From Escherichia phage vB_EcoP-CC1: a DNA stretch of 44,532 nucleotides. A program made the position numbers and the translations under genes. The stretch lies in sequence record OX457022, one strand, 5' to 3'. The notes beneath the pieces were generated by a model that did no database searches, was not told the origin of the DNA, and was given only the letters and a program-made list of their open reading frames with translations. Below, in pieces: positions 4,949 to 43,705 of this stretch (positions are counted from its first letter, which is position 1; each line of letters begins with the position of its first letter).

Positions 4949-6499
4949 ATGATGCAAGACACCGACCTTGAGTATGGTGGAAAGCGGTCGAAGATACCTA
5001 AGTTGTGGGAGAAGCTATCTACTAAGCGCAGTCCTTTCATGGACAGGGCAAAGCACTATGCGAGGTTGACTTTGCCATACCTCATGAATGAGGAGGGAGA
5101 CAACAATACTTCTCAGAATGGGTGGCAAGGTGTAGGTGCACAGGCCACTAACCACTTAGCTAACAAGTTAGCACAAGTTCTCTTCCCTGCTCAACGCTCT
5201 TTCTTCCGAGTTGACTTGACAGCAAAAGGGGAGAAGATATTAAACAACAGAGGTCTTAAGAAGACCAAATTAGCTACGCTGTTTGCTCAAGTAGAGACTG
5301 CTGCTATGAAGCAACTAGAGCAGCGGCAGTTCCGCCCAGCGGTGGTAGAATGCTTCAAGCATTTGATTGTTGCAGGTAACTGTATGCTGTACAAGCCAAG
5401 CAAGGGTGCAATCAGTGCGATACCTATGCATCACTATGTAGTTAATCGAGATGCTAATGGGGAACTGCTGGATATTATCTTACTACAAGAGAAGGCGCTA
5501 AAGACATTCGACCCTGCAACTCGCATGGCTATTGAAGTAGGCATGAAAGGTAAGAAGTGCAAAGACAGTGATAATGTAAAACTCTACACACACGCCAAGT
5601 ATGAGGGTGAAGGTTTTTGGGAATTAAATCAATCAGCAGATGATATTCCTATTGGTAAATCTAGCAGAATCAAGGCTGATAAACTCCCATTCATCCCTCT
5701 TACTTGGAAGAGGTCTTATGGAGAAGATTGGGGTCGCCCTCTTGCAGAGGATTATTCTGGAGATTTATTCGTAATCCAATTCCTGTCTGAAGCGGTTGCG
5801 CGTGGCGCTGCTTTGATGGCCGACATTAAATACCTGATTCGTCCAGGTGCTCAGACAGATGTAGACCACTTTGTTAACTCAGGAACAGGCGAAGTAATCA
5901 CTGGTGTGGAAGAGGACATCCATATCGTACAACTAGGCAAGTATGCAGACCTAACACCAATAAGTGCTGTACTAGAGGTTTATACCAGACGCATCGGCGT
6001 AGTCTTTATGATGGAGACTATGACACGACGAGATGCAGAACGTGTAACTGCTGTAGAGATACAGCGAGATGCTCTTGAGATTGAGCAGAACATGGGTGGC
6101 GTATACTCACTCTTTGCTACGACTATGCAGACACCCGTGGCTATGTGGGGTTTGCTTGATGCCGGAGACTCTTTCACCAGTGACCTAGTAGATCCTGTTA
6201 TCATCACAGGTATTGAAGCATTAGGTCGCATGGCAGAGTTGGATAAGCTGGCTAACTTCGCTCAGTATATGGCATTACCTATGAGTTGGCCTGAGCCAGT
6301 ACAGGCAGCGGTGAACTGGCCTGATTATATGGATTGGGTTCGTGGTCAGATCTCCGCTGAACTTCCATTCCTAAAATCAGAAGAGCAGATGAAGAAAGAG
6401 CAAGCACAGATGGCACAAGCACAGCAAGAGCAGATGCTTAATGAAGGAGTAGCTAAAGCTGTACCTGGTGTCATTCAACAAGAACTTAAGGAGGCGTAA
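4949..6499 (+). CDS. head-to-tail connector (portal) protein
   Basis: 516 aa; position before scaffold/capsid; segments WQGVGAQATNHLANKL and ERVTAVEIQ resemble recalled T7 gp8 WQAVGARGLNNLASKL / ERVTAEEIR. Confidence 0.9.
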   Translation: MMQDTDLEYGGKRSKIPKLWEKLSTKRSPFMDRAKHYARLTLPYLMNEEGDNNTSQNGWQGVGAQATNHLANKLAQVLFPAQRSFFRVDLTAKGEKILNNRGLKKTKLATLFAQVETAAMKQLEQRQFRPAVVECFKHLIVAGNCMLYKPSKGAISAIPMHHYVVNRDANGELLDIILLQEKALKTFDPATRMAIEVGMKGKKCKDSDNVKLYTHAKYEGEGFWELNQSADDIPIGKSSRIKADKLPFIPLTWKRSYGEDWGRPLAEDYSGDLFVIQFLSEAVARGAALMADIKYLIRPGAQTDVDHFVNSGTGEVITGVEEDIHIVQLGKYADLTPISAVLEVYTRRIGVVFMMETMTRRDAERVTAVEIQRDALEIEQNMGGVYSLFATTMQTPVAMWGLLDAGDSFTSDLVDPVIITGIEALGRMAELDKLANFAQYMALPMSWPEPVQAAVNWPDYMDWVRGQISAELPFLKSEEQMKKEQAQMAQAQQEQMLNEGVAKAVPGVIQQELKEA

Positions 6500-15570: not shown

Positions 15571-15588
15571 TGTCTCACATGTGAGACA
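15571..15588. repeat. 18-bp perfect palindrome TGTCTCACATGTGAGACA
   Basis: 16 nt after stop of 980-aa gene; member of palindrome family; flanked by AAGG...CCTT. Confidence 0.9.
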
Positions 15589-29475: not shown

Positions 29476-30092
29476 CTGAGGGAATCCGTCTTCGACGGGC
29501 AGGGCTGATGTACTCCTTGTACTAGCTTAGTAGTACACAAGGGCTGGCCTTTTGTTTTGCCATGTACTAGCAAGGTGGAACGCTGGAGAGCGCCTAGGAC
29601 GGCCTAGGGATGGGCTTAGTGGTGGACAAGGTGATTGCCTTAGTGAAGCCTCTTAGTGCATTCCTGAGGCCATTCAGGGCGTTTATGAGATATTGACAGG
29701 GTGTGCGTGGGTGGGCTATCTGTTCGTTTCGTTCACTCCGCTTGCGCTACGTTCACTCGCTCACGTGTACCTTAGGTTGTTCCTTGATGGATAGCTTAGG
29801 TTAGCCTTAGTGGACTACCTTAGTTATAACCTTAGTGCTTATCTTAGTAATAGCTTAGTAATGTACCTTAGTAAGTCTTAGTGTCTTCTCTTAGTGATTG
29901 CACATGCAAGCATGTAAGATGCCATTAGGTCGCGGTCGGTAGACCGCTAAAGAAAGAGAATAGTAATAAGATGCAGTAGGAGGAACACCAGAAACCTAGC
30001 CAACCTAACCTATCCTAGCTCTGTATCTATTGCTTTTCCTTAGTCTAACATGTGAGACAACCTAGATTTATCTTAGTGATGATAGCTTAGTG

Positions 30093-30121
30093 TTGACAAG
30101 GCCATCTCAATGTAATACTAT
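30093..30121 (+). promoter_or_regulatory. candidate host sigma70 early promoter (TTGACA-17-TACTAT)
   Basis: Perfect -35, 5/6 -10, 17-nt spacer; upstream of early small ORFs. Confidence 0.45.
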
Positions 30122-30532: not shown

Positions 30533-30734
30533 ACATGAGATTTACACTGATTGCAGTAAATCGGCTAAAGCTATCTGCGATTTGTACAAGGCAGAATGCC
30601 AGACGTACAACCTCAACGATGGTACTGAGATGTTTTATCTTCAGTTTGAAAGCAAGTTATCTCACAAACGAGTGATTAACAGCCTGAATCAACACTCCTT
30701 GGAGTGGGAAGAAGTAAATAGCAATAAAGTTTAA
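30525..30734 (+). CDS. hypothetical early protein (69 aa)
   Basis: GAAGGAG RBS 8 nt upstream. Confidence 0.45.
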   Translation: MFKHEIYTDCSKSAKAICDLYKAECQTYNLNDGTEMFYLQFESKLSHKRVINSLNQHSLEWEEVNSNKV

Positions 30735-30820: not shown

Positions 30821-30913
30821 GATGGTAGCTTCTTAGTCTGGATAGGTTAAACCTAGGGGATTCTCTTGAGTCTCCTATAATGTAACCTAACTAACTAAAT
30901 GAGGATTAATAAC

Positions 30914-31273
30914 ATGACTATGTCTAATATGACTTACTCTCAGGTTTACAACACCGCTCATGCTGCATTAGTTGAACGTATCTGGAATGATGCTATTGAT
31001 TGTATCGATAACGCACATGATGCAATCCATGAGGTAGCGGACAGTGCTGTACCAATCTATTATGCTGACATCTTCTCAGTGATGGCGAGTGAAGGTATTG
31101 ATCACTTCTTCGAAGACTCCGGCCTGATGCCAGATACTAAGGATGTAACGGTCGTACTACAAGCCCGTATTTATGAACAACTCACCATTGATTTATGGGA
31201 ACGTGTTCAAGATATGATTGTTGCGTACACCAATTACGCTGAGGATTCAGAAGAAGAAGAAGAGGAAGAATAA
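30914..31273 (+). CDS. ocr: Ocr (T7 gene 0.3-like DNA-mimic anti-restriction protein)
   Basis: MTMSNMTY...[42 protein letters not shown]...[14 protein letters not shown] plus poly-Glu tail matches recalled T7 Ocr nearly residue for residue; GAGGA RBS. Confidence 0.85.
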
Positions 31274-31275
31274 GG

Positions 31276-31389
31276 ATGGAAAAGCAATATAACTTTATCT
31301 TTTCAGACGGTGTGACCCTGAAGTGTTCCCTGCGTTTCGCACAGATTCGCGAGGAAGTGCTAGGAACTACATACAAACTATTTAGCTGA
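31276..31389 (+). CDS. hypothetical small protein (37 aa)
   Basis: Short ORF right after ocr; its 3' end contains promoter-like sequence at 31380. Confidence 0.25.
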   Translation: MEKQYNFIFSDGVTLKCSLRFAQIREEVLGTTYKLFS

Positions 31390-31401
31390 CACTATAAGAG
31401 A
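31380..31401 (+). promoter_or_regulatory. variant phage promoter-like sequence (ATTTAGCTGACACTATAAGAG)
   Basis: 16/17 match to SP6-type -17 to -1 but A at +1; upstream of RNAP gene. Confidence 0.4.
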
Positions 31402-31462
31402 GGGTTTAACAGGGCGCTCTTGCGAGAGTGCCCGATTAAATCAACTTAACGAGATATTAAAT

Positions 31463-31639: not shown

Positions 31640-31703
31640 TGAGCCTATAGCCTACTTAAGTGGGCTATGTGAACACCATTCATTAACTCAAAAGGTGACT
31701 ATT

Positions 31704-32627
31704 ATGACTACTGAAAACACCCTCCTGTCTGTTCGTGAAGCTGCAACCGCTGAGATCAAGCAACACTTAGACAATATCGGCACTTCTTACATCAAAGTTG
31801 GCGCTTGTCTTAATGAGTTACGCGGTGACTTTGAAGGTCAAAAAGACTTTTTGGCTTATGTAGAATCAGAATTTGGAATCAAGAAAGCACAATGTTACAA
31901 GCTGATGAGTGTAGCCCGTGTCTTTGAAGGCGATGATCGCTTTAAAGGCGTGGCGATGCGTGTAATGCTGGCACTTGTTCCTTTCGCTGATGAAAATATC
32001 ATCATGGAGAAAGCCGCAGAACTTGCCGCAGCGGGCAAGCTGGACACTAATGCCGTAAATGCCCTGATTGATCCTAAGAAAGAGACAAAGGCCGAGACGG
32101 TACAATCTAAGGCTGAGGCGGTAAAACCGCAGGAGAATGCGACTGAGGCCGCAGAAACTATGCAAGGACATGCGACCTTTGAGGATTTCATCTTAGAGAA
32201 GGCGAAAGAGGAATTACAAAGTGTGCCGCCAGTAAGTGAGTCGGGTAACGACGAATCCGCACCGTGGGAAGATGAAAGCAAGCCGGAAGCGCCAAAGGCC
32301 GCGCCACTGGATAACACGGCTAACACGGAGAACGCCGCTATGTCTGGCCTACTGGCACAAATTAAGGCACTGACTGAGCAATTACAGGCAGCTAACGACC
32401 GCATCGCCGCCCTAACCAGTGCACGGGAAGGTAAGAAAGCGGCTGCGCCTATGCTTCCGCAGTTTAAATCCTCTTGCTTCTACGCTCGCTTAGGCTTGAG
32501 CGCCGAGGAAGCAACGAAGAAAACAGCAGTGAATAAGGCACGCCGTGAACTGGTTAAACTAGGGTATGGTGAAGGTCATGAGGCATGGCCTTTGATCTCT
32601 GAGGCAGTAGAAGAATTAACTAAGTAA
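31704..32627 (+). CDS. hypothetical early protein (307 aa), Ala/Glu/Lys-rich C-terminal half
   Basis: ATG 31704 with AAAGG upstream (ORF track start is GTG 31695); occupies slot between ocr and RNAP; no kinase motifs recognised. Confidence 0.6.
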   Translation: MTTENTLLSVREAATAEIKQHLDNIGTSYIKVGACLNELRGDFEGQKDFLAYVESEFGIKKAQCYKLMSVARVFEGDDRFKGVAMRVMLALVPFADENIIMEKAAELAAAGKLDTNAVNALIDPKKETKAETVQSKAEAVKPQENATEAAETMQGHATFEDFILEKAKEELQSVPPVSESGNDESAPWEDESKPEAPKAAPLDNTANTENAAMSGLLAQIKALTEQLQAANDRIAALTSAREGKKAAAPMLPQFKSSCFYARLGLSAEEATKKTAVNKARRELVKLGYGEGHEAWPLISEAVEELTK

Positions 32628-32690: not shown

Positions 32691-35318
32691 ATGCAAGATC
32701 TACACGCTATTCAGCTTCAGCTTGAGGAAGAAATGTTTAACGGCGGTATTCGTCGCTTTGAAGCAGACCAACAACGCCAGATTGCATCAGGTAATGAATC
32801 CGATACGGCATGGAATCGTCGCCTGTTGTCGGAGCTTATCGCACCTATGGCGGAAGGTATTCAGGCTTATAAGGAAGCCTACGAAGGAAAGAAAGGACGC
32901 GCACCGCGTGCACTGGCCTTCATTAACTGCGTAGAGAACGAAGTGGCAGCATATATCACGATGAAGATCGTAATGGATATGCTTAACACAGATGTAACCT
33001 TGCAAGCCATAGCAATGAATGTAGCTGATCGCATCGAAGATCAAGTACGCTTCAGCAAGCTGGAAGGCCACGCCGCCAAATACTTTGAAAAAGTTAAGAA
33101 GTCACTCAAGGCAAGTAAGACTAAATCATATCGCCATGCGCACAACGTAGCGGTAGTGGCTGAGAAGTCAGTAGCTGACCGTGACACTGATTTCTCCCGC
33201 TGGGAGGCGTGGCCTAAAGATACCTTACTGCAAATCGGTATGACCTTGCTAGAAATACTGGAGAATAGCGTATTCTTCAATGGTCAACCTGTCTTCCTCC
33301 GCACCTTGCGCACTAATGGTGGCAAGCATGGTGTTTACTACTTACAGACCAGTGAGCACGTAGGGGAGTGGGTTACAGCATTTAAAGAACATGTAGCGCA
33401 ACTTAGTCCGGCCTATGCACCTTGCGTCATTCCTCCGCGCCCTTGGGTGTCCCCTTTTAATGGTGGGTTTCATACTGAGAAGGTGGCAAGTCGCATCCGT
33501 TTGGTAAAAGGCAACCGTGAGCACGTCCGTAAGCTGACCAAAAAGCAAATGCCAGCAGTTTATAAGGCTGTTAATGCTTTACAGGCCACTAAGTGGCAAG
33601 TTAACAAAGAAGTTTTGCAGGTAGTAGAAGACGTTATCCGTCTCGACCTTGGTTATGGTGTACCTTCCTTTAAACCACTCATCGACCGCGAGAACAAGCC
33701 GGCTAACCCAGTGCCGTTAGAATTTCAACACTTGCGAGGCCGCGAACTGAAGGAAATGTTAACGCCGGAACAATGGCAAGCCTTCATCAACTGGAAAGGT
33801 GAATGCACCAAGCTGTATACCGCTGAGACTAAGCGCGGAAGTAAGTCGGCGGCAACCGTTCGCATGGTAGGACAAGCGCGCAAATACAGCCAGTTTGATG
33901 CGATTTATTTCGTGTATGCACTGGATAGCCGCTCACGCGTTTATGCGCAATCTAGCACACTCTCACCGCAATCAAACGACCTAGGCAAGGCGTTACTGCG
34001 TTTTACCGAAGGGCAGCCGCTAAATAGCTCTGAGGCGCTTAAATGGTTTTTGGTGAACGGGGCGAATAACTGGGGTTGGGATAAGAAGACTTTCGACGTG
34101 CGCACCGCTAACGTACTGGACGGCGAGTTTCAAGATATGTGCCGCGACATTGCAGCGGATCCTCTGACCTTTACTCAATGGGTAAATGCCGATTCACCTT
34201 ATGGATTCCTTGCATGGTGCTTTGAGTATGCTCGTTATTTGGATGCACTGGATGAAGGAACACAAGATCAGTTTGTGACGCATTTACCTGTTCATCAAGA
34301 TGGTAGCTGTTCTGGCATCCAGCACTACAGTGCTATGCTACGCGACGAAGTGGGTGCGAAGGCGGTAAACCTTAAACCATCCGACTCGCCTCAAGATATT
34401 TATGGAGCGGTTGCGCAGGTTGTTATCCAGAAGAACTACGCCTACATGAATGCAGATGATACAGAAACTTTCACATCTGGAAGCGTAACACTTACAGGTG
34501 CAGAACTGCGCAGCATGGCTAACGCGTGGGATATGATTGGGATCACTCGCGGCTTAACCAAAAAGCCAGTAATGACCTTGCCATACGGCTCCACCCGCTT
34601 AACCTGCCGTGAATCGGTGATTGATTATATCGTTGATTTGGAAGAAAAAGAGGCGCAGAGAGCTGTTGCCGAAGGGCGGACGGCTAATCCTGTGCACCCT
34701 TTTGATAATGACCGTAAAGACTATCTGACACCTGGTGCAGCTTACAACTATATGACCGCTTTAATTTGGCCTTCTATCTCTGAGGTTGTTAAAGCGCCTA
34801 TAGTGGCGATGAAAATGATTCGCCAGCTTGCACGATTCGCAGCTAAAAGAAACGAAGGGTTAGAGTACACCTTACCCACTGGTTTCATCTTGCAGCAAAA
34901 GATAATGGCTACCGACATGCTACGCGTATCCACTTGCTTGATGGGTGAAATCAAGATGAGTCTACAGATTGAGACTGATGTAGTGGATGAAACGGCAATG
35001 ATGGGCGCTGCCGCTCCTAACTTTGTTCACGGTCATGATGCGAGTCACCTTATTCTGACTGTATGTGACCTAGTTGACAAAGGTATTACATCAATTGCAG
35101 TTATTCATGACTCTTTCGGAACTCATGCAGGCCGTACATCAGATCTTCGTGATAGCTTAAGGGCAGAAATGGTTAAGATGTATCAAGGGCGTAACGCCTT
35201 GCAGCAATTGCTGGATGAGCATGAAGAACGTTGGTTGGTGGACACTGGCATTCAAGTGCCGGAACAAGGGGAGTTTAACCTTGAAGAGATATTAGTTTCT
35301 GACTATTGTTTTGCATAA
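32691..35318 (+). CDS. single-subunit DNA-directed RNA polymerase (SP6-type)
   Basis: 875 aa; N-terminus [32 protein letters not shown] and C-terminus ending DYCFA agree with recalled SP6 RNAP; AGGAG RBS. Confidence 0.95.
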
Positions 35319-35391: not shown

Positions 35392-35409
35392 TGTCTCACG
35401 CGTGAGACT
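35392..35409. repeat. palindrome family member TGTCTCAC-GC-GTGAGACT
   Basis: Perfect 16-bp palindrome GTCTCACGCGTGAGAC; 2 nt upstream of promoter at 35411. Confidence 0.85.
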
Positions 35410-35572: not shown

Positions 35573-35590
35573 TGTCTCACATGTGAGACT
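35573..35590. repeat. palindrome family member TGTCTCAC-AT-GTGAGACT
   Basis: 4 nt upstream of promoter-like sequence at 35595. Confidence 0.85.
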
Positions 35591-35774: not shown

Positions 35775-37763
35775 ATGGCTATTATTCAGAACGTACCGTG
35801 CCCTGCCTGCCAAAAGAATGGACACGATAAATCCGGCAACCATCTTATGATATTTGAGGATGGCGCTGGTTACTGTAACCGTGGTCATTTCCATGATAAT
35901 GGCAAACCTTATTACCATAAGCCAGAGGGCGGCATCGAGATAACCGAATTGCCCATTACTGGCAATATCAAATACACACCTTCTCAATTCAAAGAAATGG
36001 AGAAGGAAGGGAAGATAAGCGACCCTAAGCTACGCGCCATCGCACTTGGTGGTATGCGTATGAAAGACCGTTGGGAGGTCATGAATGAGCAAGAAAGGGC
36101 AGACCAAGAAGCAGAGTGGAAACTTGATGTTGAATGGTTCCTCACGCTTAAGCGTAAGAACCTTGTTTCCCGACACATTCGCGGCGACATTTGCGCATTG
36201 TATGATGTACGTGTCGGACACGATGAAGAGGGTAGAGTCTCGCGGCATTACTATCCACGCTTCGAGAAAGGTGAGCTAGTAGGAGCTAAGTGTCGCACAT
36301 TACCTAAAGACTTTAAGTTTGGTCATTTAGGTAAACTCTTTGGTATGCAAGATCTTTTCGGGATGAATACTTTGTCTCACGTGTTAGACAAGGGAAGACG
36401 AAAGGATTGCTTGCTTATTGTTGGTGGGGAACTGGATGCGCTAGCAGCGCAGCAGATGCTCCTTGATTCTGCCAAGGGTACTAAGTGGGAAGGTCAACCT
36501 TACCATGTATGGTCTGTTAACAAAGGGGAGTCTTGCCTTGAAGAGATTGTGCAGAACCGTGAACACATCGCCCAATTCAAGAAGATTATTTGGGGCTTCG
36601 ATGGGGATGAGGTAGGGCAGAAGCAGAACCAGCAAGCGGCTCGCCTGTTCCCTGGCAAATCTTATATCCTTGAATACCCCTCTGGTTGCAAAGATGCCAA
36701 CAAGGCATTGATGGCTGGTAAAGCCAAAGAATTTGTGGATGCTTGGTTTAATGCAAAGTCATCTGATGAAGTCTTTGGTAGCCAGATTAAATCTATCGCA
36801 TCTCAAAGGGATAAGCTCAAGGCTGCACGTCCAGAACAAGGGCTGTCATGGCCTTGGCCTAAGCTAAACAAGGTAACACTGGGTATCCGTAAGAACCAGC
36901 TTATCATTATAGGTGCAGGCTCTGGTGTTGGTAAGACAGAGTTCCTCCGTGAAGTGGTAAAGCATCTCATCGAAGAACACGGTGAATCTGTAGGTATCAT
37001 TTCTACAGAAGACCCGATGGTCAAAGTGTCCCGTGCTTTTATCGGTAAGTGGATTGATAAGCGTATTGAACTACCGCCAACCAATGACCCGAAAGAAGAT
37101 GGCTACCGTGAGGTGTTCGACTATACAGAGGAAGAGGCTAATGCTGCCATTGATTATGTAGCTGATACAGGGAAGCTGTTTGTAGCTGACCTAGAGGGTG
37201 ACTATTCGATGGAGAAGGTAGAGCAAACTTGCCTAGAGTTTGAGGCTATGGGTATTTCTAATATCATCATTGATAACTTAACGGGGATTAAATTAGATGA
37301 GCGTGCTTTTGGTGGGAAGGTTGGTGCACTTGATGAATGCGTCAAACGAATTGGTACTATCAAAGACCGACATGCGGTTACGATTTTCCTTGTCTCTCAC
37401 CTTACACGCCCTCCGGCAAACCGTACCCAACACGAAGAAGGTGGCGAAGTTATCCTTTCTGACTTCCGAGGCTCAGGCGCTATCGGATTCTGGGCATCTT
37501 ACGCCTTGGGGATTGAGCGTAATACAAGAGCTGAAACGCTTGATGAACGGACTACCACGTACATCTCATGTGTCAAAGACCGCGACCAAGGTATCTACAC
37601 TGGAACCAAGGTCATGCTTAAGGGTGACATTCAAACCGGACGTTTAATGGAACCACAAGCCCGTACTAAGTCATTTGATACAGGTGAAGCAAGGCAACAA
37701 GAAGTACCTGATTTACCGGACACTATAGAAGAGACAACCTTTGACGATGAACAGGAGTTTTGA
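35775..37763 (+). CDS. DNA primase/helicase (T7 gp4-like)
   Basis: N-terminal zinc-binding CPACQKNG...GYCNRGHFHD, central primase-type region, helicase Walker A GAGSGVGKT; acidic C-terminus DDEQEF. Confidence 0.9.
   Translation: MAIIQNVPCPACQKNGHDKSGNHLMIFEDGAGYCNRGHFHDNGKPYYHKPEGGIEITELPITGNIKYTPSQFKEMEKEGKISDPKLRAIALGGMRMKDRWEVMNEQERADQEAEWKLDVEWFLTLKRKNLVSRHIRGDICALYDVRVGHDEEGRVSRHYYPRFEKGELVGAKCRTLPKDFKFGHLGKLFGMQDLFGMNTLSHVLDKGRRKDCLLIVGGELDALAAQQMLLDSAKGTKWEGQPYHVWSVNKGESCLEEIVQNREHIAQFKKIIWGFDGDEVGQKQNQQAARLFPGKSYILEYPSGCKDANKALMAGKAKEFVDAWFNAKSSDEVFGSQIKSIASQRDKLKAARPEQGLSWPWPKLNKVTLGIRKNQLIIIGAGSGVGKTEFLREVVKHLIEEHGESVGIISTEDPMVKVSRAFIGKWIDKRIELPPTNDPKEDGYREVFDYTEEEANAAIDYVADTGKLFVADLEGDYSMEKVEQTCLEFEAMGISNIIIDNLTGIKLDERAFGGKVGALDECVKRIGTIKDRHAVTIFLVSHLTRPPANRTQHEEGGEVILSDFRGSGAIGFWASYALGIERNTRAETLDERTTTYISCVKDRDQGIYTGTKVMLKGDIQTGRLMEPQARTKSFDTGEARQQEVPDLPDTIEETTFDDEQEF
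37711..37732 (+). promoter_or_regulatory. phage RNAP promoter class I embedded in primase/helicase 3' end (ATTTACCGGACACTATAGAAGAG), +1 G at 37728
   Basis: Exact consensus inside coding sequence (encodes DLPDTIEET). Confidence 0.7.
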
Positions 37764-37940: not shown

Positions 37941-37958
37941 TGTCTCACATGTGAGACA
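37941..37958. repeat. 18-bp perfect palindrome TGTCTCACATGTGAGACA
   Basis: 17 nt after stop of small ORF; identical to copy at 15571. Confidence 0.9.
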
Positions 37959-39153: not shown

Positions 39154-39171
39154 TGTCTCACGTGTGAGACA
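39154..39171. repeat. palindrome family member TGTCTCAC-GT-GTGAGACA
   Basis: 17 nt after preceding stop; flanked by AAGGG...CCTTT. Confidence 0.9.
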
Positions 39172-43689: not shown

Positions 43690-43705
43690 GTCTCACATGT
43701 GAGAC
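43690..43705. repeat. palindrome family member GTCTCAC-AT-GTGAGAC
   Basis: Starts 2 nt after preceding stop; 15 nt upstream of promoter 43721. Confidence 0.85.

Follow-up and report, generated by a model that had tools for sequence, protein, structure and literature searches.

Genetic organization of the locus

The window, by which the whole analysed stretch of 44,532 nucleotides from Escherichia phage vB_EcoP-CC1 (OX457022) is meant, contains a homologue of gene 6 of SP6 and K1-5, read from its open reading frame as starting with ATG at 31704 and ending with TAA at 32625-32627 and giving a product of 307 amino acids (Table 1). The ATG is the likely start, since the alternative GTG at 31695 falls within the Shine-Dalgarno sequence, and homologues of the protein likewise start with MTT. 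The gene lies between ocr and the RNA polymerase (RNAP) gene, as the first-pass annotation had stated: the upstream neighbour at 30899-31273 is a true ocr homologue (Pfam PF08684, E 2.9e-42), while the downstream neighbour at 32691-35318 encodes a T7-type RNAP of 875 amino acids. Two small open reading frames (37 and 58 amino acids) and an SP6-type phage promoter were found between ocr and the gene, and the promoter core, GACACTATA, is repeated 13 times in the window. The neighbouring genes in this part of the genome are anti-restriction genes, ocr here and a SAM lyase gene in relatives.

The protein is 86.6-88.6% identical to K1-5 gene 6 and K1E gp6 and 63% identical to SP6 gene 6, and the profile phrog_4571 matches it in full length (residues 1-307, E 2.7e-130). 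The family is kept in 213 phage records, so that a chance open reading frame is excluded. The protein had been described as functionally uncharacterised, and in fact phrog_4571 is labelled 'unknown' and no discussion of gene 6 past 'unidentified function' was found in the papers searched. Single-protein searches of Pfam, NCBIfam, PADLOC and PDB sequences gave no match for it, and the first homologue search returned close relatives only, with no Pfam domain in any of them. The labels 'endolysin' and 'andolysin' carried by homologues in some GenBank records were rejected, as no lytic domain is present.

Table 1. Positions of the gene, its predicted domains, control sequences and the candidate palindromic sites in the window
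Feature	Positions	Strand	Basis and remarks
Gene (SP6/K1-5 gene 6 homologue)	31704..32627	+	Including stop codon; ORF and sequence; 307 aa
Shine-Dalgarno AAGGTG	31692..31697	+	6 nt before ATG; direct sequence reading
SP6-type phage promoter (ATTTAGCTGACACTATAAGAGAG)	31380..31402	+	Upstream of 58-aa ORF, gene and RNAP gene; predicted from core match
N-terminal six-helix domain, KorB/ParB-like HTH of DUF3102 type	31731..32069	+	Residues 10-122
Predicted recognition helix KKAQCYKLMSVARV	31884..31925	+	Residues 61-74; secondary structure H46-57, turn, H61-74
M85-R86, start of helix 85-94	31956..31961	+	Putative second specificity determinant (half-site positions 6-7); top AMI 0.89
Acidic disordered linker	32076..32318	+	Residues 125-205, pI 4.4
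Long helix, presumed dimerising coiled coil	32319..32432	+	Residues 206-243, AlphaFold model
C-terminal J-like domain	32439..32624	+	Residues 246-307; GYGEGH in place of HPD loop; conserved P-x-LPQF motif before domain
Site 1 (GTCTAACATGTGAGAC, 1 mismatch)	30043..30058	.	Near genome left end; RNA fold z 0.13, no stable hairpin
Site 2	35393..35408	.	74 nt past RNAP stop, 2 nt upstream of phage promoter (from 35411); weak fold z -0.74
Site 3	35574..35589	.	5 nt upstream of second promoter-like sequence (from 35595); weak fold z -1.1
Site 4 (1 mismatch)	36374..36389	.	Within primase/helicase gene
Site 5	37942..37957	.	17 nt past stop codon, apex of 13-bp hairpin; -19.7 kcal/mol, z -6.5
Site 6	39155..39170	.	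17 nt past stop, apex of 13-bp hairpin, upstream of DNA polymerase gene; -17.9 kcal/mol, z -5.1
Site 7	43690..43705	.	1 nt past stop codon, 15 nt upstream of phage promoter (from 43721); weak fold z -1.2
Site 8	15572..15587	.	Between two large internal-virion-protein genes, 17 nt past stop; -15.1 kcal/mol, z -4.0

Domain architecture of the 307-aa protein

An AlphaFold model of the protein (mean pLDDT 81.7) revealed two globular domains, both above 94, with a linker and a single long helix between them. Confidence in the linker is mostly low, the means of 10-residue blocks ranging from 47 to 70 over residues 131-210, and its length differs among homologues; for the helix the block means range from 62 to 95 with the peak at residues 211-240. 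Since the candidate sites described below are palindromic, this helix would dimerise the protein as a coiled coil. The coiled-coil segment that the first-pass annotation had placed in the C-terminal half corresponds to this helix of the AlphaFold model; both globular domains, the KorB/ParB-like HTH and the J-like one, had been missed. The N-terminal domain is net acidic by composition (pI 4.9), which counts against a DNA-binding reading.

A repeated palindrome in the window and in related phages

The palindrome GTCTCAC-NN-GTGAGAC, extended on its two sides as (T)...(A), occurs eight times in the window, where 0.15 copies would be expected. Seven copies lie between genes, and the positions show synteny with SP6. 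On the best reading of the sequence, these candidate sites adjoin phage promoters and gene ends. Site 1 precedes the -35 hexamer of a sigma70-like promoter (30093-30121) by 35 bp, and its SP6 counterpart at 493 has conserved flanks; the counterpart of site 2 at SP6 position 6093 is 76 nt past the RNAP stop, and that of site 8 is found syntenically at 30569. At site 4, SP6 and locus L027 keep the site at the equivalent codons, with Ser-His changed to Ser-Asn. The orthologues of site 5 in L020, L027 and SP6 are surrounded by identical or near-identical flanks and use GTCCAAC or GTCTAAC as the half-site instead. The distances from site to promoter are uneven (2, 5 and 15 nt), so that one fixed activation geometry is disfavoured. 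The 16-mer palindromes were found in none of the papers searched, although the repeats may have been mentioned earlier, in the report of the SP6 genome by Dobbins et al. (2004).

Unbiased palindrome scans placed the same element on top in three related phages: Vibrio phage AS51 with nine copies, Njord with 10 perfect copies (11 with mismatches tolerated) and phiEa100 with four perfect copies (nine with mismatches tolerated). The same scan gave no such repeated palindrome in T7 and phiKMV, which are without the gene; loci L054, L065 and L097 gave no clear site, and L049 only three imperfect copies. SP6 and PM116 use the half-site GTCCAAC, the subclass of L088 and L094 uses GTTTCAC, and half-site spacers of 2 and 3 bp both occur. 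At orthologous sites the flanks are identical and the inner bases alone switch, as in cagggctt-GTCTCAC..-aggctctt versus cagggctt-GTCCAAC..-aggctctt.

Co-variation of the protein with its candidate sites

The assignment of the palindromes to a reader was approached through 51 distinct homologues from phages of E. coli, Salmonella, Proteus, Erwinia, Vibrio and Pseudomonas as well as metagenomic phages, whose half-sites fall into about 10 classes. In these 51 unique proteins, 13 five-residue signatures (residues 63, 65, 66, 85 and 86) map to nine half-sites with no conflict. An identical half-site is kept at 21% domain identity, and differing half-sites are found at 81% identity. Adjusted mutual information (AMI) was computed over all 117 domain columns in place of plain mutual information, because the latter was dominated by high-entropy columns. 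The best predictor of half-site position 3 was Y65; for positions 4-5 it was K66 (AMI 0.79, the next column reaching 0.46), and for positions 6-7 M85/R86 (0.89) and Q63 (0.73).

The same calculation on RNAP served as a control, in which none of 859 columns matched these values for positions 4-5, for positions 6-7 or for the half-site class as a whole, while position 3 was uninformative; RNAP was therefore rejected as the palindrome reader. The co-variation is partly confounded by phylogeny. In the neighbour-joining tree, however, Vectrevirus (K, GTCTCAC) is nested inside the N/H clade (GTCCAAC), so that at least one homoplasy occurred with a matching residue change. We infer from this co-variation that the palindrome set belongs to the 307-aa protein, and the gene thus probably encodes a modular, presumably dimeric, sequence-specific DNA-binding protein of the palindromes in the phage genome.

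Relationship to known DNA-binding proteins

The DNA-binding-domain fold is common to the protein and KorB of the IncP plasmid RK2 (PDB 1r71, 8qa8), with sequence similarity undetectable. KorB has a ParB-type N-terminal CTPase domain that is absent here and dimerises by its C-terminal domain, whereas the 307-aa protein would dimerise by the coiled coil; furthermore, the latter includes a J-like domain and is encoded by a lytic T7-like phage. ParB/Spo0J-parS and Noc-NBS have abutting half-sites in contrast to the 2-3 bp separation found here, and the 307-aa protein has neither a CTPase domain nor evidence of spreading; no ParB-type Pfam domain was found in it or among the 25 families that 71 relatives hit most frequently. 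The ParB/KorB trait of several palindromic sites on the own replicon is shared, and the assignment of these sites to the protein comes via co-variation.

The nearest BFVD structures are DUF3102 proteins. DUF3102 (PF11300) matches 26 of the 71 family members, P0160 (26.7 bits) and P0212 (29.4 bits) scoring above the 24.4-bit threshold, but it does not match the 307-aa protein even at E<=1; compared with DUF3102 proteins, the coiled coil and J-like C-terminus are specific to the gene 6 phage family. KfrA_N (PF11740) matches one of the 71 relatives (E 0.0087), and the HTH-plus-coiled-coil layout common to KfrA and the 307-aa protein is a resemblance only.

Alternative readings of the palindromes

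It could be asked whether the protein binds the palindromes not to regulate transcription but to organise the genome like ParB, by bridging or condensing it, or to mark replication origins, while its J-like domain recruits or mimics chaperone functions in the manner of SV40 large T antigen or of lambda O/P with DnaK and DnaJ. We consider this unlikely, in spite of a DNA-binding domain of ParB/KorB type, a half-site TGTCTCAC that is one base from the parS half-site TGTTTCAC (the GTTTCAC of L088 and L094 being the latter itself), and sites that flank promoters both at the left end and behind the RNAP gene. The two sites behind the RNAP gene correspond in location to the primary origin of T7 at promoters phi1.1A and phi1.1B. 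Further support comes from two large high-GC viral contigs, in which the identical palindrome occurs in clusters on either side of a gene for a ParA-type ATPase, with an open reading frame containing a similar HTH stretch behind that gene, but these ParA-linked frames are weakly homologous to the gene 6 family (HMM E 1.3e-3; hhalign probability 2.6%). Moreover, the protein begins with its DNA-binding domain and lacks the N-terminal CTPase domain of ParB, several sites coincide with hairpins at gene ends that have no relation to origins, and it is not obvious why a lytic podophage of 44 kb would need partition. A ParA partner is not expected in a T7-like genome.

A second possibility, which we regard as improbable, is that the palindromes act purely at the RNA level, as processing or stabilising hairpins or terminators, and that the protein is unrelated to them, its HTH binding host DNA, for example, or no DNA. 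Sites 15572, 37942 and 39155 form hairpins of 12-13 bp (-15 to -20 kcal/mol, z -4 to -6.5) that are followed by U-rich sequence, one such site is annotated as a Rho-independent terminator in the PM116 record, and U-G wobble pairing is kept in six of seven hybrid (asymmetric) sites of SP6. The three stable hairpins with U-tracts and the SP6 pairing indicate that an RNA-level role exists or coexists. Evidence against a purely RNA-level role comes from the remaining five of eight sites in the window, which fold no better than shuffled RNA, and from the site at 30043, which has an unpaired mismatch and yet is conserved in position with SP6. In addition, a single sequence is common to all sites of a given genome, compensatory drift being absent, and E. 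coli, Vibrio and Pseudomonas phages have the same stem sequence. No RNAP column comes close to the recognition-helix residues in tracking the half-site classes, and the asymmetric site of L060 occurs in both orientations (4 versus 5), so that there is no RNA-pairing bias in L060. A known RNA family for the palindromes was also sought and rejected, with no Rfam match.

The genomic slot between ocr and RNAP is that of T7 gp0.7, for which the first-pass annotation had taken the gene as a possible substitute while seeing no kinase-like motifs in it. The latter observation was borne out, since no kinase domain or motif was found by Pfam, NCBIfam or PDB similarity and the fold is HTH plus J-like, without similarity to gp0.7 in sequence, domain or fold. 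A kinase or gp0.7 replacement was rejected on the lack of a Pfam kinase and because Vibrio phage AS51 has, besides its homologue, another gene annotated 'kinase' directly upstream of RNAP; no Pfam match was obtained for that gene. The annotation's other proposal, a host-takeover or anti-defence factor, is very improbable. Such a factor could, for instance, shut off host transcription or, as a DnaK/DnaJ/CbpA decoy, neutralise a host system through the J-like domain. The early position directly upstream of RNAP, the anti-restriction neighbours (ocr or SAM lyase) and a J-like fold that could contact Hsp70 or J-proteins, with a precedent in Rki of RB43 (PMC3486835), speak for it, but PADLOC and NCBIfam gave no kinase or defence-related signature, the kinase-annotated gene coexists in AS51, the HPD for Hsp70 stimulation is missing from a variable loop, and the strongest signal ties the protein to the DNA of the phage itself.

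The J-like domain

The J-domain helical fold, with helix I and antiparallel helices II and III, is present in the 307-aa protein, but the His-Pro-Asp motif is absent from the loop between helices II and III. The loop is variable in the family (GYGEGH, YTxxxNP, YxGN), and HPD occurs in one of 71 aligned members, the distant P0247; a search with this relative matched P0247 alone, so that descent from a functional J-protein cannot be shown. Pfam DnaJ (PF00226) matches seven of the 71 members, all below threshold (best 26.0 versus 27.8 bits), and does not match the 307-aa protein itself, while the C-terminal profile found J domains in PDB at E 3e-4 to 0.1. Compared with the HPD-less J-like domains of Tim16/Pam16 and the J-domains of DnaJ and CbpA, the protein stands apart by its variable loop and the sub-threshold Pfam scores. 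Rki of RB43 and SV40 large T antigen keep a functional HPD and act via Hsc70 or DnaK. Unlike the 307-aa protein, neither has a ParB-like HTH. Rki is described as a phage J-protein that targets DnaK (PMC3486835). Because the variable loop replaces HPD, canonical Hsp70 ATPase stimulation by the 307-aa protein is not expected; the domain would more likely provide a surface for docking or for an effector function, with DnaK, a host J-protein or an RNA polymerase as the partner, and it may have a host-directed role.

Proposed mechanism

For the preferred reading, in which the protein binds the palindromes, a model is proposed that each HTH of the coiled-coil dimer would read one half-site, and the flexible tether would account for the tolerance of both 2- and 3-bp spacers. 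The protein would be made early by host RNAP and then again from its own phage promoter, and would subsequently occupy sites on the incoming phage genome, namely one by the early promoter at the left end, three that precede phage promoters by 2-15 bp, and those at the apexes of hairpins at gene ends. Once bound, it could modulate transcription initiation or read-through and thus regulate the genome of its own phage globally, in the way of KorB.

More tentatively, and with somewhat less confidence than an even balance would warrant, a previously unrecognised cis-trans system may be shared by SP6/K1-5-type and Colwellvirinae phages. It would consist of an early KorB/ParB-like HTH protein and 6-11 genome operators, co-evolved over about 10 specificity classes, in which residue 66 would read positions 4-5, residue 65 position 3 and residues 63, 85 and 86 positions 6-7. 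The protein would exert global control over transcription units or over origins of replication, and a chaperone or a polymerase would be brought to the DNA as a partner of its J-like domain, which lacks HPD; the ParA-linked cassettes with the identical palindrome would point to a domesticated centromere-binding protein.

The T7-like phages serve as the textbook example of a programme that depends almost wholly on polymerase switching, and we know of no sequence-specific DNA-binding regulator with its own operator set described for them; nor was any account of such a regulatory layer found for this group. If the protein binds the palindromes, an extra layer of control at promoters and gene boundaries would exist in the SP6/K1-5-type phages, the source of SP6 RNAP and a group with use in therapy. 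In that case DUF3102, which is widespread in phages and plasmids and has no assigned function, would become a ParB/KorB-type DNA-binding domain. For the former 'hypothetical protein' there are now eight candidate sites and five candidate specificity residues, and, given such binding, the naturally matched variants of protein and site would constitute a testable recognition code and a source of orthogonal operator-repressor pairs.

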